Below, piece after piece: positions 3,938-58,563 of a stretch of 61,889 nt of DNA; position 1 is the stretch's first letter, and each line of letters starts with the position of its first letter. Source of the stretch: Candidatus Saccharimonadales bacterium. GTDB lineage: Bacteria; Patescibacteriota; Saccharimonadia; Saccharimonadales; UBA10212. Location of the stretch: positions 1-61,889 of the forward strand of contig JBBRSU010000004.1 of NCBI GenBank assembly GCA_038245195.1, given 5' to 3'. The notes beneath the pieces were generated by a model. That model worked only from the letters and a program-made list of their open reading frames with translations, did not search any database and was not told the DNA's origin. Both the position numbers and the translations under genes were made by a program.

Positions 3938-4456
3938 CTATTTACGCACCCATTGCTGGAACTCGAAGTCATATGGCCGATCGGGAACCTGGTTCTTTTT
4001 GTATAGCTCAGATGAGACCATCTTCCATTCTTTTTGGTCTAGTTTGAAGAACTTATCACCTTTGGTAACAGTGGTATGAACGCGTGTAAAGTATATTTTA
4101 TTTACCAGGGGTAATGCTTGATCGAATATTTCACTGCCACCAATTATAAACGCTTCGTCAACACTCTTGAGTTGTGGTAAAGACAGTGCTTCTTCCAGTG
4201 AGTGAGCCACTACGCCACCTTCAGCAACTTTATAATTTGGGTTACGGGTAACGATGATATTGAGCCGTCCCGGCAAAAGACGAGGTTTATCTTTATATGT
4301 TTTAGGTGTTTCATATGTTTTCCGACCCATGATTATCGGATGGCCCATAGTTATTCTCTTAAAAATAAGTTGTTCGCCTCTTACGAACCAAGGAATTTTA
4401 CCGTCCTTTGCGATTACTCCATTATCACTACAAGCGACTACCAAAGATATCTTCAT
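3938..4456 (-). CDS. folA: Dihydrofolate reductase
   Basis: ISLVVA...GVIAKDGKIPW, GRKTYE and IIGGSEIF motifs. The ATG at 4456 lies 4 nt after the thyA stop (TAA-tccc-ATG). The ORF-track start at 4480 is a GTG that would overlap thyA by 20 nt. Confidence 0.85.
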   Translation of the reverse strand: MKISLVVACSDNGVIAKDGKIPWFVRGEQLIFKRITMGHPIIMGRKTYETPKTYKDKPRLLPGRLNIIVTRNPNYKVAEGGVVAHSLEEALSLPQLKSVDEAFIIGGSEIFDQALPLVNKIYFTRVHTTVTKGDKFFKLDQKEWKMVSSELYKKNQVPDRPYDFEFQQWVRK

Positions 4457-4460
4457 GGGA

Positions 4461-5378
4461 TTAAACTGCAATCGGGGCACTTATCGGGGCCTCGGGATTA
4501 TAGTTGATTAATTCAAAGTCCTCGAATTTGAAACTAAAAATATCTTTAACTTTGGGGTTAATTTTCATTTTTGGCAAAGCCTTTGGCTTTCTAGATAATT
4601 GGAGGTCGACCTGCTCAAGGTGATTTGAATAAAGGTGTGTGTCGCCGAAGGTATGTATAAATTCACCGGGTTTTAAGCCACAAACTTGGGCGATCATCAT
4701 TGTCAAGAGAGAGTAGCTGGCAATATTAAATGGCACACCCAAAAATGTGTCGGCACTTCGTTGGTACATTTGACACGATAATTTACCCTTAGCTACATAA
4801 AACTGAAAAAGCAAATGGCAAGGTGGCAGACCCGATATCGTCATTTCATCAATATCGGCCACGTTCCAGGCCGAAACGATCATGCGCCTAGAGTCAGGGC
4901 TATTCTTGATAGTTTCAATAACTTGTTTGATCTGATCAATATGATGTCCTTCCGGTGTCGGCCAATTACGCCATTGATAACCATATACCGGACCTAGCTC
5001 ACCGTGCAATTTGGCAAAATCAGCATCATTTTTTATTTGTTCAGTAAACTGCTTGATGCCCTCTTTCCACTCCGGTCCATTAATCTGCGGTATTTTCTTA
5101 TTTTGTTTTAATAGAAAGGACTTGTACGGCCAATCATCCCAAATATGAACGCCATTATCGACCAGGTATTTGATATTGGTACTTCCCTGGAGAAACCAAA
5201 TTAGCTCATGTATAACCGCCTTCATGTAAAGCTTCTTAGTAGTCATAGCCGGAAAGCCATCTGCTAGATCAAACCGTAGCTGTCGACCAAAAACAGAAAT
5301 CGTACCTACACCAGTCCGGTCCTGTTTTTTAACACCGTTGGTTTTAATATCGTTTAAGAGCTCCAAATACTGCCTCAT
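4461..5378 (-). CDS. thyA: Thymidylate synthase (ThyA type)
   Basis: MRQYLELL N-terminus. DRTGVGT, the active-site region LPPCH, and the [15 protein letters not shown] motif. I chose the ATG at 5378; the 27 extra upstream codons in the ORF track do not look ThyA-like. Confidence 0.92.
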
Positions 5379-5449
5379 AAGTAAAATTATTATAAACCTA
5401 CAACCGCCGGCTTGCGTGTTGTATTTTACTCCTGTTAAGCTTAAGAGTA

Positions 5450-7108
5450 ATGGAAGCATTTTACAGAAGCCTAAAACAAAAAGGCTTTGAAGGAGATATC
5501 GATGATAGTCAGCCTACAAAGCAGTTTTATAGCCACGACGCTTCATTATTTGAAATGGTTCCACAAGTGGTTGTATTCCCCAAAAAAACCGCCGACTTAC
5601 AGAGATTAGTACTAGCGGTAAATGAAAACCGCGGAGCTATACCGGGGTTGTCCTTGACGGCTAGAAGTGCCGGTACCTGCATGTCTGGTGGCTCAATTAG
5701 TGAATCGGTGGTGGTAGAGATGAATCGTTACTTTAATCACATCGAACAAGTAGATCACAACTCCGCACAAACTGAGCCAGGTGTGTTTTATAGGGATTTT
5801 GAGAAAGCAAGTTTAGCCCAAGGTGCCTTGCTGCCCTGCTTCCCAGCTAGCCGGGAGCTTTGTACGGTAGGCGGGATGGTAGCCAATAATTCCGGTGGTG
5901 AAAAATCACTCCAATATGGCAAAACTGAAAATTTTGTCAGCAAACTAGATGTTATTTTATCAGATGGTAAAAACTATACCTTGCGACCCTTGCAGAAACC
6001 GGAGCTCGAAGCTAAAAAAGCTCAAAAGAACTTCGAAGGCGAGATATATCGAAAGATGTTTGAACTACTGGATAATAACTACGATCAAGTTAAAAAAGCC
6101 AAGCCCCATGTTAGTAAAAACTCCACCGGCTACAATCTATGGGACGTCTGGGATCGGGAGACAGGAGTCTTTGATCTAACTAAGCTGTTTACTGGCTCAC
6201 AGGGCACTCTCGGTCTAATCAATAACATTAACTTCAGGTTAATTAATGAAAAACCACACTCCGGGGTCCTAGTAGCCTTCATGAAAAAAAAGAATATGGA
6301 GAAGCTGGGCCAGATCATTAACCAGGTGGCCATAAAAAAACCGGCTAGTTTTGAAGCTTTTGATAACTACACGCTAGAGTTGGCTATTAAGTTTTTCCCA
6401 TATTTCCGAAAGACCTTAGGCTGGGGCGGTTTATTTCGCTTAGCACTCCAATTAATCCCCGATGGGCTGCTGCTGCTTAGGGGTATCCCCAAGATGGTAC
6501 TGTTAATTGAGTTTACCGGTGACACCCCCGAAGAAGTTAGCCAAAAAATTAAGGACATGCATAAGTTACTTAAGCCCTATAATCTTGAAGCTTTTGAAGA
6601 GGACTCCACTGAAGCTAAGGCTTGGAAGTTTAGAATTATTCGCCGGGAAAGTTTTAATTTACTACGGAAAAAAGTTAAAAACAAGCACACTGCCCCCTTC
6701 ATTGATGATTTGGTGGTGCCACCGGCTAAGTTGGTTGATTTTTTACCGCAACTTCAAGCAATTATCAAAAAGTATAATCTAATGGCGACGATTGCCGGCC
6801 ATATGGGAGATGGGAATTTTCATGTTATTCCGTTAATGAAGATAGAAGAACCAGCCGAACGAGCGAAGCTGGCCCCGGCCATGAAAGAAGTTAATGAGCT
6901 AGTTTTGAAGTATGGCGGCTCGCTGTCGGGCGAGCACAACGATGGCATGATAAGGGGTCCTTGGCTGACCCAGATGTACGGACCTCAGATTGTAGATTTG
7001 TTTAAGCAAACCAAGCAGATATTCGACCCCCAGAACATTTTCAATCCCCATAAAAAAACCGATGCCGATTGGGATTTCTCAATGGCCCATATTCGCGAAC
7101 ATTTTTAG
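5450..7108 (+). CDS. FAD-linked oxidase (GlcD / D-lactate dehydrogenase-like, PCMH-type FAD-binding domain)
   Basis: 552 aa. N-terminal FAD-binding-4-like region (VVFPK...[11 protein letters not shown]). C-terminal oxidase domain with [10 protein letters not shown]. Divergent from thyA. Confidence 0.75.
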
Positions 7109-51916: not shown

Positions 51917-52429
51917 TTATAGTGCGGCTTCGAGAGCGGCCCACTCGGCATCTACCGATGTGTCTTCTGGAACATTCACGCTAACTTGATCGCCAGGCTT
52001 GGCCTTAAAGTAAGTAACGCTCGCCAGTAATACTCGATATTGGTTGTCATCTACATCTACGAAGTAATGTCCGTCTTTTTGTTGTAGTACCCCAACTACT
52101 TGGCGCCTGGGTATTGGCCCAATTTGCTTATACATAAAAGCCCCATCGTCGGCGATTGTTAGCTTCAAGATATCTCCTTGGACTAACTTGGATTTAGAGG
52201 CATAGTTAGCCGGGACTGGGTAGGTTTTGCTATCTGAGCCAACCATATTTTGGCCATCAAAAACTCCTTCGATAACTTTACCCAAAGCTTTATCGATAAC
52301 TTTATCGGTTAACTCTGAATCATCGCCCACTAGACTAATAAGCAGCTCTTTAGTGGCTGCTAAGGCGGTTTCGGCTTCAGCTATTAAAGCTCGGAGTCGT
52401 TTTATTTGCTTCTCTGGAATGTCTGCCAT
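51917..52429 (-). CDS. Conserved-looking hypothetical protein (coiled-coil N-terminus plus beta-rich C-terminal domain)
   Basis: 170-aa ORF in a tight gene array. No recognisable family. Confidence 0.5.
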   Translation of the reverse strand: MADIPEKQIKRLRALIAEAETALAATKELLISLVGDDSELTDKVIDKALGKVIEGVFDGQNMVGSDSKTYPVPANYASKSKLVQGDILKLTIADDGAFMYKQIGPIPRRQVVGVLQQKDGHYFVDVDDNQYRVLLASVTYFKAKPGDQVSVNVPEDTSVDAEWAALEAAL

Positions 52430-52590: not shown

Positions 52591-53019
52591 TTAAGCTAAT
52601 TCTACACTAGCACCGGCGTCTTCTAGGGCTTTCTTAGCTGTTTCGGCTTCTTCTTTACTAACTTTCTCTTTAACAGCTTTAGGTGCACTATCAACGATGG
52701 CTTTGGCTTCACCCAATCCTAGACCAGTTATGTCCTTTACGGCTTTAATGACAGCGACCTTTTGAGCTCCGGCGTCCTTGAGTACAACGTCGAACTCAGT
52801 TTTTTCATCAACAGCGACACCGGCTTCACCGTCAACCGGGGCAGCCACGGCCATGGCTGGAGCAGCGGCTGATACACCCCAATACTCCTCTAGAAACTTA
52901 ACGAACTTGGAAATTTCTAAAGCACTCATTTTATCAAGATGCTCTACAATTGAACTAAATTCTTTTGGAACTTCGACTTTTTCAGTCTTTTTTTCTTCTT
53001 TTGATTCTGATTCGGCCAT
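52591..53019 (-). CDS. rplL: 50S ribosomal protein L7/L12 (about 20-aa acidic/basic N-terminal extension)
   Basis: [11 protein letters not shown] hinge. [41 protein letters not shown], and EDAGASVEL. Confidence 0.95.
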
Positions 53020-53033
53020 TATATTCTCCTTAT

Positions 53034-53564
53034 TTAACTTAATTGATCAGCTCGGGCACTCAAGACGTTTAGAACGCCTCTTATATTGCCAGACAGCACA
53101 TTTACAAAACCGCTTAGCGGGGCACCGATTGTGCCTACCAGTTGAGCTCGAAGCTGATCCTTAGACGGTAAACTAGCTAAAGCTTTGACATCTTCGGACG
53201 ACAGCATCTGACCTTCGGCGTTAATCGCCCCAACAAATTCTATTTGGGTTTCTTGTTTTGCGAAGTTTGCTAAGACTTGAGCTGGAGCCACTTCATCTTC
53301 AGCGTTAAAAGCGTAAATCAACTGACCGCCTAAAATTGTCGTATCGACAGCTTTAAGATGATCAGTCTTGGCCAAAGCTTGTTTGACCAGTCTATTCTTT
53401 ACTACTTTGATGGCTGTGGCGTTTTGCTTAGCCTGTAATCTAAGTTCCTGCATTGCTTTAACTGATGTGCCGGAATACTTAGCAACTACTGTAAGCTTTG
53501 AGCTATTCAATAGCTCACTAACCGTTTTAACAACTTCGGCTTTCTTATCTTTGCTTAATGCCAT
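53034..53564 (-). CDS. rplJ: 50S ribosomal protein L10
   Basis: 176 aa. The L10 pattern (KKAEVV...[13 protein letters not shown]...VVKNRL) and its position upstream of rplL. Confidence 0.93.
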
Positions 53565-53624
53565 AAGATAACCTTTCTTATTAATTGAAATATGTATTAC
53601 GTAATTGTTAAACTGCGTAGCCTA

Positions 53625-53659
53625 AAAAATAAAAAAACTTTGGCTAATTAAACCAAAGA
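53625..53659 (-). terminator. Terminator or attenuator hairpin between the tmk-fusion gene and rplJ
   Basis: Stem CTTTGG (53639-53644) / CCAAAG (53654-53659). On the minus strand it is followed by TTTTTTTATTTTTT. Confidence 0.6.
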
Positions 53660-53773
53660 CATAAGATTACAATAATGTTCTCAGTAACCTTGGTAGCAGA
53701 TTAAGCTTATTAAAAGCAGCTACTGTCTTCGGTAACTAACAACAAGCTTAGCACATGCTTAACAGGGGTGCAA

Positions 53774-55747
53774 CTAAATATTTTCAGTTTTCTTTGGTTT
53801 ATGCCGACGCTTAGCAGGTTTAATTCGGTTTCTGGGCTCCAGACGATTTTGTGCCTGTAGGTTTCCTTCAGATAGAACTTCCCAAGTCAGTGGATGAACT
53901 TCGGCTACCGCTTCCATCAAGCCATCAATCAAATTCTTATTACCAACCGTTAAGCCTTGTTTCAGAATAAGGTTCAAATTCTTAGCGTCAACGCTGAATT
54001 GCCAGCGCATTCTGTGTCCCAGAAGAGTTGCGTAAACAGTTAAATCGTCTCTGTCGATCTGCTGAAGTATACTAAACAGCTTGAGACTGATATCGAAGCA
54101 TTCGAGATAGAGTTCCTCGATGCCAATGTCTTCTAATATCGGGTCGACCTCATAGCCGAAGCGCGGCGAGGCCATTTGAACTTGAAGGTTAGATATAACT
54201 GCCAAATTATTAAAATCATTTAGGCTTATTTGATCAGATACTACGTCAAACTTATACTTTATTTTTTCTAGAACTGATTCAGCGGCAGCTGCTTGTTTAA
54301 AGCTGTCAAGCTTCTGCTGATAAGACCAAGCCGAAACTTCTTCAGAAATTTCTTCGAGTGAAAGATTACTATAAGGGTAAATGCTTTCAGCCAATAAGTC
54401 GAATTCCAGTCTGGGCGAAGCCTCGAGTAACCTTACTTCCTTTTTATCACTTGAATTTAGTGATAATTTGTCCTCGGCTAACTTAGCTATGATGTTATTT
54501 ATCGGCTCCGGACCAGTTTGGGATTCTATAGGCTGCTTGAATTGGCGTGGCCATTTGGCCTTTGCGGCCGTATAAAGCTGCTTGGCACTCCATTGTAGCT
54601 CGGGTGTGTCACTCGATAATAAGCTAGTCGATAGTCGATTTACAGCTTTATCTGATAATTTAACGCTAAAATTTGATAAGGCTGCCAATGGCGTAACCGG
54701 CAAAAGTAATTGGCTGATGTTATTTTTTTCATATAGCATCTGACCAGTTAGGATGCTCTTTTCGTAGTGCTGCTCCAGTTTTTGGCGCATTTGCTTATGA
54801 AGTTTGGCAATTTGAAACAGACTATCCTTATAGGCCAGGTCAACTTCCTTTGGTAGCCCCATTGGTGTATAAAACTTATAGTCAAAGTCGGACCAGACAC
54901 TAAAACCAGATGGTTCAACTGATTTTATCTGCCTTTCGACATTCAACTTAAGCAGCAAGCTTGAATTAGTAAATTGTTGAATCAATTTAGGGCTATGATC
55001 GTCAATCTGAGGGCTACTTTGGGTCGGAGAGCTCAAGGTTACTACAGAGCTGTGGCCAAGATGAGGTTTGTCTGGAGGCAGTAATGGCTTTAGTTTGTCC
55101 CAAATTAAATTACTTATCGTAGCTACGCTTAACAACTTACCATTTTCAGTGCATTCAATGGCCGAGAAATCCTTAGGAAATAGTTCGCATAATAAATCAT
55201 AAGTAGCGACAGACTTTCTTAAGAATTCTAAGTTCGATTCATGCTCATCACGGGCTTTATTCTGTCCTGACCTTTGGCTTATTAGGTCATTCGATATATC
55301 AGCTGGAACTCTTAAAAACAAATTAATATTGGGCCTGGGAATATTCAAAAGCTGATACTCGAGATTATCCTCCCATACAAAAAATCCGCGCTGCTCAACC
55401 GGATCATCGAATTTAGCACCTTGGTGGGCCATATTGGAGCCGACGTAGCGATCAATTAGAACGATTTTACCGGCCTCAACCTCCTTTAGTATGTCGTTAG
55501 ATGCTTCATACCTGTCCAATGCATAAAATAACGATGCGGTGTAGGGGCTTATGTTTTTAGCTGAGCCATAGCCTCCAGATAAATAGGTTTTTATGAAATG
55601 GCTAGACTCTTTGTTGTAACGCGGAAAATCAAATGTCGATACATCATAGCCGGCCGCTTTTAATCTTTCGCTTAGTAACTTTAGTTGCGTAGCCTTACCC
55701 GAACCATCGGAGCCCTCCAGAACCAGAATTAAGCCACGGTTTTTCAT
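53774..55747 (-). CDS. tmk: Thymidylate kinase fused to a C-terminal extension of about 430 aa (two degenerate ThyX-like repeats, tentative)
   Basis: The N-terminal 210 aa or so carry LEGSDGSGKATQ (P-loop), DRY and the lid region. The rest (657 aa total) has no Tmk counterpart. It contains two segments with a ThyX-like pattern (LLPVTPLA...NRL and YATLLGHRMRWQFSVDAKNL) but no RHRxxS motif. Confidence 0.8.
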   Translation of the reverse strand: MKNRGLILVLEGSDGSGKATQLKLLSERLKAAGYDVSTFDFPRYNKESSHFIKTYLSGGYGSAKNISPYTASLFYALDRYEASNDILKEVEAGKIVLIDRYVGSNMAHQGAKFDDPVEQRGFFVWEDNLEYQLLNIPRPNINLFLRVPADISNDLISQRSGQNKARDEHESNLEFLRKSVATYDLLCELFPKDFSAIECTENGKLLSVATISNLIWDKLKPLLPPDKPHLGHSSVVTLSSPTQSSPQIDDHSPKLIQQFTNSSLLLKLNVERQIKSVEPSGFSVWSDFDYKFYTPMGLPKEVDLAYKDSLFQIAKLHKQMRQKLEQHYEKSILTGQMLYEKNNISQLLLPVTPLAALSNFSVKLSDKAVNRLSTSLLSSDTPELQWSAKQLYTAAKAKWPRQFKQPIESQTGPEPINNIIAKLAEDKLSLNSSDKKEVRLLEASPRLEFDLLAESIYPYSNLSLEEISEEVSAWSYQQKLDSFKQAAAAESVLEKIKYKFDVVSDQISLNDFNNLAVISNLQVQMASPRFGYEVDPILEDIGIEELYLECFDISLKLFSILQQIDRDDLTVYATLLGHRMRWQFSVDAKNLNLILKQGLTVGNKNLIDGLMEAVAEVHPLTWEVLSEGNLQAQNRLEPRNRIKPAKRRHKPKKTENI

Positions 55748-55752
55748 GATTC

Positions 55753-56466
55753 CTACAGTGCCTTAAGACCCTTAATCGGCTTAGGGACTGAGCGCTTGTC
55801 GAGGTAAGCTCTTGGGAGCATCATTGCCGGGTGCCAATCCTTAATGAGTTTATTTAAATCAGTGCCAGTTTGATACTTACCACTAAAACCTTTGTTACGG
55901 CCTTCGCCATAATTACCTTTAACGGGCCCAGTTTGGTGAAAAACTATTTGGGCAATTCGTTCTCCAACCGGCAATAATACAAGCTCTTTTTGATTTAGGT
56001 TGTAAATCTCTAAGGTCAGTCGGTTGATATATCCAGGATCTATCCAACCGGCGTCAAAACAAACGGCCACACCATTTCTACCCCAACTAGAGCGTGATTT
56101 TACTTCACATGCACCGGGTGGGATAATCCCAAAAAATTCATGAGTGTGGGCTAAGATTCTTTCTCCTGGCCTAACTGGTATCACCGGATGATTGGCCGGA
56201 ATGCCACTTAGTGGTTTAATACCATTTTCTTGGCACCATTTTTTGTGAGGTACGGCTTGTAGAGCACCTTCGAAGTATCTTTCTACGTCAATTTTATCGA
56301 AGGGATTGTAAACTGGATGATCTGCCGACCGTTCGGTTCTGTAATAGTAATGCCCGAGCGTCACATCCAAGCTAGCATGTGAGACATGATTAGTATTTAA
56401 AGGCGTGCAAATAATATGGCCGGTTTTTACGGCTTCAATAATTTCGGTGTTACTGAATACACCCAT
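55753..56466 (-). CDS. dcd: dCTP deaminase / dUTPase-superfamily protein
   Basis: SLDVTLG, VKSRSSWGRNG and GWIDPGY...LEIYN motifs. SD AAGGAG upstream of the ATG at 56466. Confidence 0.8.
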   Translation of the reverse strand: MGVFSNTEIIEAVKTGHIICTPLNTNHVSHASLDVTLGHYYYRTERSADHPVYNPFDKIDVERYFEGALQAVPHKKWCQENGIKPLSGIPANHPVIPVRPGERILAHTHEFFGIIPPGACEVKSRSSWGRNGVAVCFDAGWIDPGYINRLTLEIYNLNQKELVLLPVGERIAQIVFHQTGPVKGNYGEGRNKGFSGKYQTGTDLNKLIKDWHPAMMLPRAYLDKRSVPKPIKGLKAL

Positions 56467-56536
56467 TGGTTAACTCCTTACGCCTTTAAGTCTATAGTCA
56501 TTATCTTTACCCAGCAAGCATTAGCCGAATGATGGA

Positions 56537-57520
56537 CTAATTAGTGTTGGTAACTACCATGATACTAGGCCCCATAGTGGTCGTAATATGTATAGCTTTA
56601 ATATAGATGCCTTTTATACTGCCCGGTTTAGCGGCTCGGACACTAGCCATCACAGCTTCACTATTTTTTAGCAGTTTATCTGGCCCAAAACTCACCTTAC
56701 CAATCGGCATATGGATGATACCGGCCTGATCGACCCGATACTCAACCTTACCGGCTTTAGCCTCTTCGATAGCCGAAACCACATTGGCAGTAACCGTTCC
56801 ACTTTTAGGGTTGGGCATTAGTCCGCGAGGACCCAACATTCTGGCAAATTTACCCAACTTTGCCATCATTTGAGGCGTTGAAATCAAAACGTCAAATTCA
56901 ATGTTTTCTTTTTCTAAATCGGCAAAAAGCTTGTCAGCATCGCTAATATCAGCCCCGGCTTTCTTGGCTTTGGCGGCATCATCAGCTTCAGCTAAAACAG
57001 CAATCCGAATTGATTTACCGGTTCCGCCCGGTAAAACTACGTTGTCTCGGACATTCTGATCGGCTTGTTTCGGATCGACTCCAAGATTAACGTGTAGCTC
57101 AACTGATGAGTCAAATTTAGTAGTGCTGGTCTTGATAGCTAAGCTAAGGGCTTCCTCGAGACTATATCGTTTGTCTTTTTCTATAAGTTTTAATGCTTCA
57201 CGATACTTCTTACCTGCCCGTTCAGACCTAGACCGGACTTTAGGTGTAGCTTTGGATGCTTCGACAGCATCTGCAAGCTTGCCAGCAGTTTTTCGTTCTT
57301 GCTTGGCAGCTTTAACTTCCTGCTCCAATGTAGCTTTAGCACTACGTTTTCCAGCTTTGGCTAAACTTTTAGTCGAGCCTGTCTCAGTAACTTCTTTGGT
57401 TTCATCTTCGTCTATTAAGCTGGTAGACTCAGCGGTTAATTCAGCCTTCTTAATCGGCTTTTTTCTGACATCCGGCACTGGTTTGGTTTTCTTGATGATT
57501 GGCTTGGCTTTCTCGGCCAT
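56537..57520 (-). CDS. rplA: 50S ribosomal protein L1 with a Lys/Ala/Glu-rich N-terminal extension of about 100 aa
   Basis: The canonical L1 core starts at GKKYREALKLIEKDKRYSLEEAL and runs to GPRGLMPNPKSGTV. The ATG at 57520 is preceded by AAAGGAG. The ORF-track start at 57565 lacks an SD. Confidence 0.9.
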   Translation of the reverse strand: MAEKAKPIIKKTKPVPDVRKKPIKKAELTAESTSLIDEDETKEVTETGSTKSLAKAGKRSAKATLEQEVKAAKQERKTAGKLADAVEASKATPKVRSRSERAGKKYREALKLIEKDKRYSLEEALSLAIKTSTTKFDSSVELHVNLGVDPKQADQNVRDNVVLPGGTGKSIRIAVLAEADDAAKAKKAGADISDADKLFADLEKENIEFDVLISTPQMMAKLGKFARMLGPRGLMPNPKSGTVTANVVSAIEEAKAGKVEYRVDQAGIIHMPIGKVSFGPDKLLKNSEAVMASVRAAKPGSIKGIYIKAIHITTTMGPSIMVVTNTN

Positions 57521-57579
57521 TATTATCTCCTTTGTGGTACTAACGGCTAGATCATAGCCTCCCACACTTAGCTTAATTA

Positions 57580-58011
57580 CTATTCGAGTTCGATACCCAT
57601 ACTGCGGGCCGTACCGGCTACCATTTTCTTTATGGCTTCTAAGTTATCAGTATTCATGTCGGTAGCTTTAGCCTCGGCAATTTCAGTTAACTGACTTTGG
57701 TTTAACTTCTTTTCAAGTTTAACTTTGTTGGGTTCGCCTGAACCCTTATCCACTTTTAGGGTTGCTAAGATAAGCTCATCGGTCGGCGTTCCAACAACTC
57801 GCCAGTTCATAGTCCGGTCGTCGTATATCGTGATATGAACTGTAACCATTTGGCCCATCTTATCTTTTGTGCCTTCGTTGAATGGATTAATAAAGTCCAT
57901 CATATTAACGCCATACTGGCCCAGAGTTGAACCAACCGGTGGCGCCGCACTAGCTTGGCCACCCCTAATTTTTAGTTTTAAGTTCGCTTTGACTGGTTTA
58001 CCTTGTGCCAT
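57580..58011 (-). CDS. rplK: 50S ribosomal protein L11
   Basis: KLKIRGGQASAAPPVGSTLGQYGVNMMDF and the C-terminal RSMGIE pattern. Confidence 0.95.
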   Translation of the reverse strand: MAQGKPVKANLKLKIRGGQASAAPPVGSTLGQYGVNMMDFINPFNEGTKDKMGQMVTVHITIYDDRTMNWRVVGTPTDELILATLKVDKGSGEPNKVKLEKKLNQSQLTEIAEAKATDMNTDNLEAIKKMVAGTARSMGIELE

Positions 58012-58020
58012 ATTTGTCTC

Positions 58021-58563
58021 CTAGACTCGCTTTACCTGAAGGCCATCCAGTTCAACTGGAGTTTCACGACCAAACATATTAACTAATACTTTGAGTTTAC
58101 CCTTCTGGGCATCGATTTCATTAATCGCCCCATCAAAACCCTTGAACGGACCGTCTACTATATTCACAACTTCGCCGACTCGATAGTCAAATTTGTGCTT
58201 AGGCTCTTCGCGGCCCATTCGTTTCATTATTTTGACAATTTCATCAGCTTCGAGAGGAGTTGGTTCGGTGCCGGTTCCGACAAAGCCAGTAACATTAGGT
58301 GTATTCCGAACAATATACCAAGCGTCTTCTGATAATTTCATTTCGACTAATACGTATCCCTGAAAAATTCGCTTTTCAACAACTTTACGTTTACCGTTCT
58401 TAATTTCAATCATTTTTTCTTTAGGAACCAAGACTTGAAAGATTTTATCGCCCATATCTAAGCTCTCGGCACGCTGGCGAATACTCTCGGCAACCTTTTC
58501 TTCATAACCACTATAGGTATGGATGGCATACCATTGTTTCGATGAATCGTATCGCTTATTCAA
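58021..58563 (-). CDS. nusG: Transcription termination/antitermination factor NusG
   Basis: WYAIHTYSGYE NGN motif and the KOW motif GEVVNIVDGPFKGFDGAI. Confidence 0.95.
   Translation of the reverse strand: MNKRYDSSKQWYAIHTYSGYEEKVAESIRQRAESLDMGDKIFQVLVPKEKMIEIKNGKRKVVEKRIFQGYVLVEMKLSEDAWYIVRNTPNVTGFVGTGTEPTPLEADEIVKIMKRMGREEPKHKFDYRVGEVVNIVDGPFKGFDGAINEIDAQKGKLKVLVNMFGRETPVELDGLQVKRV

Follow-up and report, generated by a model that had tools for sequence, protein, structure and literature searches.

The DNA considered here, called the window, is a stretch of 61,889 nucleotides (nt) from a Candidatus Saccharimonadales bacterium (contig JBBRSU010000004.1, positions 1 to 61,889). An uninterrupted open reading frame (ORF) on its reverse strand (53774..55747; 657 amino acids plus stop) encodes a dTMP kinase (Tmk) joined to what appears to be a tandem pseudo-ThyX module, that is, two degenerate copies of the flavin-dependent thymidylate synthase ThyX. 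Judged by its sequence, the protein is a diverged homologue of a Tmk-ThyX-ThyX fusion of about 775 amino acids. We put at roughly 0.6 the probability that it is a pseudoenzyme scaffold on a working Tmk, descended from that fusion. An initial annotation of the window had assigned the C-terminal region to ThyX with low confidence, and three independent lines, namely homology, weak Thy1 profile hits in relatives and the predicted fold, now support it.

Of 8000 candidates scored in a search with residues 215-657, 423 proteins had E <= 0.001, and the best 120 of them form two groups. Proteins P0002-P0080 are mostly about 626-691 amino acids long and 30-66% identical to the query, and nearly all have only Tmk in precomputed Pfam annotation; P0081-P0120 are mostly 764-794 amino acids long, 28-36% identical at E about 1e-33 to 1e-38, and have Tmk plus Thy1. 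Four of the long proteins (about 776-784 amino acids) carry two Thy1 stretches each, at E 1e-33 to 1e-37 in a Pfam scan. Among full-length members of the short form, 6 of 59 match Thy1 at E <= 0.01 (P0049, for example, at E 1.1e-9), and many relatives have further-shortened modules, of about 500-560 amino acids. At the level of the whole library, 423 representative clusters (50% identity) were found at E <= 0.001, 348 at 1e-10 and 76 at 1e-30. The S-P-R-x-G landmark occurs in 113 of the best 150 of the 423 clusters, with RHR just upstream in 4, leaving 109 without RHR. Across the order, 151 genomes were sampled and 129 of them have Thy1, generally as a pair of stretches within a frame of about 750-840 amino acids; the 151 include one unpublished genome, G033, which is Thy1-positive and has no ThyA.

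The long, active-type fusions of the Saccharimonadales (about 764-794 amino acids) have the same domain order as the window's protein and, in most, the same Mycobacterium tuberculosis-type Tmk. Both forms share the segments P-R-x-E-F/L-D-L, S/T-P-R-Y-G-Y, C-F-D-x-S-L, Y-A-T-L-L-G-H-x-x-R-W and E-V-H-P, and in the one active-type locus that was compared, in genome G178, the long fusion occupies the same rplA-dcd-fusion slot as the window's gene. However, the window's protein is about 120 amino acids shorter, is without the start of repeat 1, has no RHR motif, His segment or Arg ligands, and ends in a basic tail where the long fusions end in an L-T-R-L-A-A-E-R-Y-T-Q-F-K-L helix. Variants of the long form were also seen. 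P0090 (1047 amino acids) and a 1036-residue frame, G060:C136, join a dCTP deaminase-like domain to Tmk and tandem ThyX, three consecutive steps towards dTDP. P0083, P0113 and the fusions at loci L005 (G068), L009 (G106) and L041 (G178) are active-type proteins with another Tmk type, whose P-loop reads EGPEGVGKTT and whose nearest relative in the Protein Data Bank (PDB) is the Pseudomonas Tmk, the kinases of the other fusions being M. tuberculosis-like; the kinase part seems to have been swapped within the fusion family.

The recurrence of the short form also bears on whether the ORF is two genes joined by an assembly or frameshift error, a doubt that the initial annotation had raised against itself. 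We regard the chance of such an artefact as next to nil and found nothing in its favour. The same architecture is present in most of the relatives P0002-P0080 of about 626-691 amino acids, which come from many independent assemblies, and in most of the 43 matching genomes among the 49 of the window's family. Within the ORF the composition is even (GC fraction 0.40-0.43 throughout, with no break), there are no stop codons or frameshifts, and the junction lies in a conserved segment, K-P-L-L-P.

Beyond the kinase, and all on the reverse strand, the gene encodes a linker rich in Pro, Ser and Gln (residues 215-253, 54989..55105), a truncated ThyX-fold repeat 1 (residues 254-432, 54452..54988; delimited by the structural model, VIA-align and hhalign), a full-length but degenerate ThyX-fold repeat 2 (residues 433-631, 53855..54451; VIA-align, Foldseek and hhalign) and a basic tail (residues 632-657, 53777..53854). 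An AlphaFold2 model of residues 215-657 had a mean predicted local distance difference test score (pLDDT) of 88.6 and a predicted template modelling score (pTM) of 0.82, with pLDDT 45-67 in the linker (model residues 11-40) and 57-66, which is low confidence, in the tail. When Foldseek was run with that model the best matches were all ThyX (best E 1.3e-5), so that the structural check proposed in the initial annotation for the C-terminal region recovered the ThyX fold. In VIA-align, repeat 2 (model residues 220-417, protein residues 434-631) matched Thermotoga maritima ThyX, 1o26_A, at Z 14.8 and a root-mean-square deviation (rmsd) of 2.8 Å over 186 aligned residues (chain 4-212); 47 ThyX or PolB entries had Z of at least 10.6, and the next entry had 5.4. 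Repeat 1 was modelled alone (residues 250-435, pLDDT 89.1) and compared by VIA-align, without Foldseek, with 48,161 representative chains. Its best match was M. tuberculosis ThyX, 2af6_A (Z 12.7, rmsd 3.2 Å, 154 residues, chain 74-246), and the top five were all ThyX or PolB, the other four at Z 9.8, 9.6, 8.9 and 8.5 and the next fold at 5.3. The initial annotation had named an absence of ThyX-fold similarity as fatal to its assignment; what we found was scores of 14.8 and 12.7 for the two repeats, with unrelated folds at about 5.

Sequence identity to the structural ThyX matches is 12-16%. In the model, repeat 1 is a ThyX fold minus its first 55-73 or so residues, and this truncation agrees with a deletion of about 75 residues in the alignment. 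Comparison of the window family with the active-type family by hhalign gave E 4.2e-52 for repeat 2 and E 2.4e-15 for repeat 1, the latter match being limited to the last 190 or so of 313 profile columns. The two repeats showed no significant similarity to each other by hhalign in either family (E 0.03-0.7), and the case for an internal duplication therefore rests on the fold and on Pfam matches in relatives, not on likeness between the repeats. The two segments that the initial annotation had picked out correspond to residues 346-400 and 570-619, which are equivalent helical-core stretches of repeats 1 and 2. Single-sequence phmmer searches of PDB sequences with the whole protein, P0083 and single active-type repeats found only Tmk, or no significant ThyX, and the profile of a default MAFFT alignment (A1) reached M. 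tuberculosis ThyX at E 0.11 only. On the strength of the homology to the long fusions, the C-terminal region is related to ThyX by descent. Since fold and descent are shared but the profile threshold and every motif test failed, we call the module ThyX-derived and not ThyX.

Several known proteins provide useful comparisons. Canonical homotetrameric ThyX, or flavin-dependent thymidylate synthase (FDTS; PF02511; 1o26, which is TM0449, and 2af6), has the same fold, and its S-x-R-Y loop is kept in the window's repeat 2, but the window's protein has two folds per chain, is fused to a kinase and lacks the motif residues. The atypical ThyX of Corynebacterium glutamicum (3fnn, 3ge9; fold match Z 12.7-13.1) is, by its PDB titles, a ThyX homologue in a ThyA-dependent genome; unlike the window's fusion, it is a single-domain, stand-alone protein. 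The PolB UMP/dUMP methylase of Streptomyces cacaoi (4p5a, 4p5b; Z 10.6-11.5 with repeat 2 and 9.6 with repeat 1) has a ThyX fold put to a different job and is an active methylase according to its entry title, whereas the window's module shows no kept catalytic residues.

The fate of the catalytic motifs was followed in an L-INS-i alignment of 116 sequences, 73 from the window family and 39 active-type, with P0086 (665 amino acids) and P0078-P0080 counted apart. Partial sequences (P0007, P0046, P0052 and P0054) were left out, and P0090 was entered without its first 255 residues, the Dcd part. Columns at 95% or above were treated as invariant and those below 50% as variable. We take RHR to be flavin-binding, the Ser and Arg of the neighbouring loop to be dUMP-binding, and further His and Arg positions to be dUMP or flavin residues of ThyX. 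Titles of PDB entries for the matched ThyX structures name H53, S88, R90 and R174 mutants. When profiles were built from seven active-type repeats, the repeat 2 motifs RHR and S-x-R-Y aligned with the motif of PBCV-1 ThyX, and the repeat 1 stretch W-G-R...S-T-R-Y aligned with M. tuberculosis ThyX at R95-H96-R97...S105-x-R107-Y108 (E 0.0034 to 0.02; these alignments were used for residue mapping only). The exact register is less certain in repeat 1 than in repeat 2. The default MAFFT alignment sets residues 259-284 against another part of active-type repeat 1, and the L-INS-i register was followed because the strand-then-helix predicted at residues 255-273 fits it.

The column that reads R-H-R in 39/39 active-type sequences is variable in the 73 family sequences and reads N514-L515-A516 in the window's protein (54200..54208, reverse strand), in line with the initial failure to find an RHRxxS motif. 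A regular expression finds RHR in P0008 and P0025, in each case away from the motif column. Also in repeat 2, a deletion of 7-8 residues takes out R-L-N-R-R-H. The segment with the conserved His (G-H-x-S) is deleted in repeat 2, and in repeat 1 it falls in the missing part. Where the active-type has the Arg of N-A-R, members of the window family have Q, A, K or R (D-A-K, with K589, in the window's protein). R-T-S-P has been deleted, and the position of the Arg of Y-R-K varies (K604 in the window's protein). Repeat 1 has x-G-F-x, with F282 in the window's protein, in place of S-T-R-Y (39/39 active-type), and V-E-R stands where the active-type has W-G-R. The S-x-R-Y loop of repeat 2 is retained, as S527-P-R529-F-G-Y532 (54152..54169, reverse strand); R529, present in 73/73 family and 39/39 active-type sequences, lies in a predicted homodimer interface. 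Altogether, at 113 linker and repeat columns that are invariant in the 39 active-type sequences, the window family (73 sequences) is either variable or has a deletion. Both families keep 32 invariant repeat columns, and a further 22, including W386, Q390, W399, K499 and W622, are invariant in the window family only. The R-H of RHR and the His are already absent from repeat 1 of the active-type family, and in the ancestral fusion complete sites were probably present around repeat 2 only. Every active-type-invariant motif is lost and the genome has a separate thymidylate synthase, so the words "catalytically dead" used in the initial annotation seem apt. Flavin binding and dUMP methylation would both have been lost, and the missing Arg ligands speak against dUMP binding of the canonical kind.

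The thymidylate synthase of the window's genome (G000; 742 kb, 96.8% complete) is ThyA. The window holds thyA (4461..5459, reverse strand; PF00303 E 5e-121, the sole PF00303 place in the genome, with ThyA at E 1.2e-121 genome-wide) and the dihydrofolate reductase (DHFR) gene folA (3938..4480, reverse strand; PF00186 E 1.5e-43), which overlaps the end of thyA, the ThyA-FolA pair being as first annotated. Thy1 has no match in this genome even at E <= 10. The thyA ORF begins 28 codons ahead of its Pfam match and overlaps the start of a divergent oxidase gene by 10 nt; its true start may be the Met at residue 28. In the order sample, PF00303 was found in 29 of the 151 genomes, and E < 1e-40, in 23, was taken to mean full-length ThyA. 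In a two-by-two table compiled by hand, with G141 and G148 taken as the two unlisted Thy1-negative genomes, ThyA-positive genomes number 8 with and 15 without Thy1 and ThyA-negative genomes 121 with and 7 without; related genomes are not independent, so these counts are a pattern and not a statistical test. Six genomes (G022, G027, G047, G099, G142 and G147) have frames of about 211-236 amino acids that match the ThyA profile at about 108-230 only, at E 1e-10 to 1e-12, and these were not counted as ThyA.

The 49 genomes of the window's own family include 34 with ThyA, and strong Thy1, meaning a two-domain match or, in G073, a canonical single-domain one, occurs in 9, all among the 15 ThyA-negative genomes. 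Seven (G175, G151, G162, G170, G185, G188 and G192) have the degenerate fusion together with a separate, intact tandem thyX, called thyX2 here, of 538-581 amino acids (the G170 start is uncertain) with RHR present and no P-loop. G178 has an active-type fusion of 768 amino acids, and G073 a single-domain thyX adjoining a stand-alone tmk. In G163 (L043, G163:C3; L045), where neither ThyA nor intact ThyX was found, the P-loop of the degenerate fusion is altered, to G-S-G-R-E from G-S-G-K-T/A, and a separate ORF of 343 amino acids has a weak Thy1 match, at E 2.2e-4. The initial annotation had asked whether genomes with the fusion lack a stand-alone thyX; this is so for the window's genome and is not so for the seven that carry both. 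We consider it very improbable that the module has kept thymidylate synthase activity, or acts as a related nucleotide methylase, by using non-canonical residues. Such an enzyme would fit the intact fold of repeat 2, the existence of ThyX folds with other substrates (the PolB UMP/dUMP methylase, Z 11.5) and four family genomes in which no other thymidylate synthase was detected. Set against this are the loss of RHR, the His segment and three Arg positions, with replacements that vary within the family, the presence of ThyA or intact thyX2 in all 38 other family genomes with the degenerate fusion, and the absence of any Pfam Thy1 match at E <= 1.

The kinase part (residues 1-214, 55106..55747, reverse strand) was delimited by Pfam, NCBIfam and alignment with M. 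tuberculosis Tmk. The initial view of the first 210 or so residues as an ordinary dTMP kinase held up. PF02223 (Thymidylate_kin) covers residues 10-201 at E 2.5e-21, with 76.7 bits against a cut-off of 27 in a Pfam scan. The rest of the protein, as also first noted, has no Tmk equivalent, and its roughly 440 residues match no Pfam family at E <= 1, Thy1 included. NCBIfam NF005923 matches the kinase part at E 1.3e-36, under its equivalog cut-off, and the dTMP kinase equivalog models of NCBIfam likewise score below their cut-offs (126 vs 193; 66.2 vs 83.25). M. tuberculosis Tmk aligns to the kinase part at E 3.3e-21, and the aligned motifs are kept: the P-loop GSDGSGKAT, FPRY, ALDR, DRYVGSN and ARDEHE. 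We take the P-loop G-x-x-G-x-G-K-S/T, the D-R-Y/H motif and the LID Arg to be functional motifs of Tmk. Because PF02223 occurs at a single place in this 96.8%-complete genome, the kinase part is expected to have working dTMP kinase activity.

The module is widely retained. The C-terminal region was matched in 43 of the 49 family genomes, which measure 0.5-1.1 Mb, mostly in frames of 635-690 amino acids, and at the protein level the available family relatives show 40-56% identity. In the window family, mean pairwise identity is 0.68 for Tmk, 0.48 for repeat 1, 0.55 for repeat 2 and 0.42 for the linker, whereas in the active-type family the order is reversed, with 0.50 for Tmk, 0.70 for repeat 1 and 0.74 for repeat 2. 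Constraint on the module thus appears relaxed but not gone. The faster evolution of the repeats (0.48 and 0.55 vs 0.68 for the kinase), the 113 once-invariant columns now free or deleted, the truncation of repeat 1, and the shorter forms and complete losses in other lineages would suit a functionless relic that is decaying slowly and is kept because clean deletion is rare. We nevertheless consider a relic improbable, given that most of the 43 matching genomes retain the module at sizes of only 0.5-1.1 Mb, that the S-P-R-x-G landmark persists without RHR in the 109 clusters counted above, that 32 + 22 columns are invariant although pairwise identity drops to 0.29-0.39, and that the window's copy is free of stop codons and frameshifts.

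A structural role could account for this retention. Prediction of two copies of residues 215-657 together gave an ipSAE interface score of 0.56 (median of three runs), and the best of 3 controls gave 0.00; proteins whose solved structure is a pair pass the mark used for this score in 20 of 30 cases, and those solved as single chains in 1 of 23. The runs share at least 54% of their contacts, and the pLDDT of the partner is at least 76. The predicted interface is formed from repeat 2 (model residues 205-315 and 367-369, protein residues 419-529 and 581-583) and includes E454-I467, D501, Q524-R529 and R581-Q583, which are the most conserved of the segments in common with the active-type. Many of the 32 columns invariant in both families fall at this interface. 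ThyX oligomers have already been solved, and the dimer pass may therefore reflect likeness to known structures. We suggest that the dead module would persist as a structural core that homodimerises through repeat 2, and that such a scaffold would keep a pair of kinase domains together and might also serve as a docking site for pathway partners.

Several observations count against a pseudoenzyme scaffold. Four genomes with the degenerate fusion (G160, G163, G187 and G193; 86-96% complete) have neither ThyA nor strong Thy1, and their fusions are also without RHR. The missing synthase may reflect the incompleteness of these genomes; a thymidine-kinase family search in the four found weak hits only, in frames of about 365 amino acids, so that salvage is unsupported. 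Stand-alone Tmk frames of 213-275 amino acids occur in G064, G094 and G114 and, within the window's family, in G073, G189 and G190. The module is cut down to about 500-560 amino acids in many relatives and has been lost from some lineages, and it evolves faster than the kinase, as relaxed constraint would predict. The loss of activity is read from motifs whose roles we presume, the support for the dimer is a model score, and the tree that suggests a single origin rests on long branches.

The module might instead be a non-catalytic ligand-binding or docking domain, one that senses dUMP, dTMP or dTTP or tethers the kinase to ThyX2 or ThyA and to Dcd, and so regulates or channels dTTP synthesis, as the initial annotation had suggested. 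We think this possible but unlikely. dCTP deaminase, thymidylate synthase and Tmk catalyse consecutive steps and are fused pairwise or all three together in relatives (P0090), dcd lies 5 nt upstream of the window's fusion gene, and the seven genomes with the degenerate fusion beside an intact paralogous thyX2 offer paralogues that could co-assemble. Invariant residues include H578, R581 and, in the S-x-R-Y loop, R529, and the 22 columns invariant only in the window family suggest new constraints. However, the residues aligned with dUMP and flavin ligands are gone, the retained invariant residues fall in the predicted homodimer interface and can be explained by it without a ligand, and the module is kept in ThyA genomes that have no ThyX paralogue left. 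A bolder form of the idea, which we likewise hold only tentatively, is that the module has been repurposed as a docking or sensing platform that brings Dcd, Tmk and the present thymidylate synthase (ThyX2 or ThyA) together in a complex for dTTP synthesis, or that ties the kinase to nucleic acid or to its ribosome-gene context. It draws on the invariant, family-specific Trp/Gln helix (E383-W399), on W622 and on the conserved basic tail. The tail, remarked on in the initial annotation, is indeed conserved, with N-R-V/I-K-P followed by Lys and Arg (R641 in 70/73 and K643 in 72/73 family sequences). If true, this would be a pseudoenzyme outliving two successive replacements of its catalytic partner.

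The scaffold that we prefer would have arisen in steps, traces of which are seen in gene order. In the window (3938-7108), thyA lies between folA and an FAD-linked oxidase gene, FAD being flavin adenine dinucleotide. In four ThyA-less genomes (G175, G185, G188 and G192; L034, L037, L038 and L039), thyX2 lies between the DHFR and FAD-linked oxidase genes. G175 belongs to the window's genus; its flanking folA and FAD-linked oxidase are 48% and 72% identical to the window's copies, and its degenerate fusion and the window's protein share 51% identity. It looks as if thyX was replaced in place by thyA, for G175 within one genus. The order in G170 is rplA, folA, thyX2, dcd and degenerate fusion. 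The DHFR gene adjoins intact tandem thyX in the ThyA-less genomes (L034-L039; L035 is G170), which is odd because ThyX is not known to produce dihydrofolate.

A quick IQ-TREE analysis covered 36 modules: 10 of the 73 family sequences, P0078-P0080, 4 further degenerate, 10 active-type, 2 short active-type and 7 stand-alone. All degenerate modules fell on one side of a branch of 2.5 changes per site with a Shimodaira-Hasegawa-like approximate likelihood ratio test (SH-aLRT) value of 100, and the stand-alone copies formed a clade (SH-aLRT 100) among short-branched active-type fusions. The dead form probably arose once, although this is not certain, since treekit warned of long-branch joins. We infer the following order of events. 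The ancestor would have been an active Tmk-ThyX-ThyX fusion, the usual form in the order. The tandem ThyX part would then have come to be present also as a separate, intact gene in the window's family, after which the catalytic residues and the first third of repeat 1 would have disappeared from the fused copy. Finally, thyX2 would have been displaced by thyA in most of the family, including this genome, and in this genus at the folA-adjacent locus.

The fusion gene lies in the order nusG-rplK-rplA-dcd-fusion gene-L10 leader-rplJ-rplL. The dCTP deaminase-like gene dcd (55753..56466, reverse strand) was identified by Pfam, and some relatives, such as P0090, have it fused to Tmk-ThyX. The dcd-tmk pair thus sits between rplA and rplJ within the nusG-rplK-rplA-rplJ-rplL cluster (52591-58563), and directly past the stop of the fusion gene comes an L10 leader (53622-53750; Rfam RF00557, 66.5 bits). 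The ribosomal protein L1 encoded at 56537-57565 has an N-terminal extension of about 143 residues rich in Lys, Ala and Glu, its Pfam L1 domain starting at residue 144 of 342. Downstream of rplL, a 170-residue ORF (51917-52429) matches no Pfam family at E <= 1e-4 and is kept at the same position in G175 (L042, 259-768). Promoter and terminator scans gave results at chance level only.

Full-text literature searches, with subscription journals and supplementary files outside their scope, found no description of a Tmk-ThyX fusion or of its dead form, and no papers containing both "ThyX" and "Saccharibacteria". Sources that name short-form proteins label them only "dTMP kinase" or "hypothetical", and some label the long fusions "thymidylate kinase/thymidylate synthase ThyX" or "FAD-dependent thymidylate synthase". 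The nearest described proteins are thus, as far as database labels and PDB titles go, these labelled fusions, canonical ThyX, the atypical ThyX of C. glutamicum and PolB.

Two thirds of a protein conserved in very small genomes therefore had no explanation in annotation. The related genomes appear to preserve a stepwise natural series, from an active fusion to a separate copy of one of its parts, the death of the fused copy and the in-place replacement of ThyX by ThyA, and all stages of it persist. Such a series should be useful for work on the origin of pseudoenzyme domains and the reasons for their persistence, and on the exchange of ThyX for ThyA and the reverse. For metabolic reconstructions of Saccharibacteria, it means that a "ThyX-like" region of this kind must not be counted as a thymidylate synthase.

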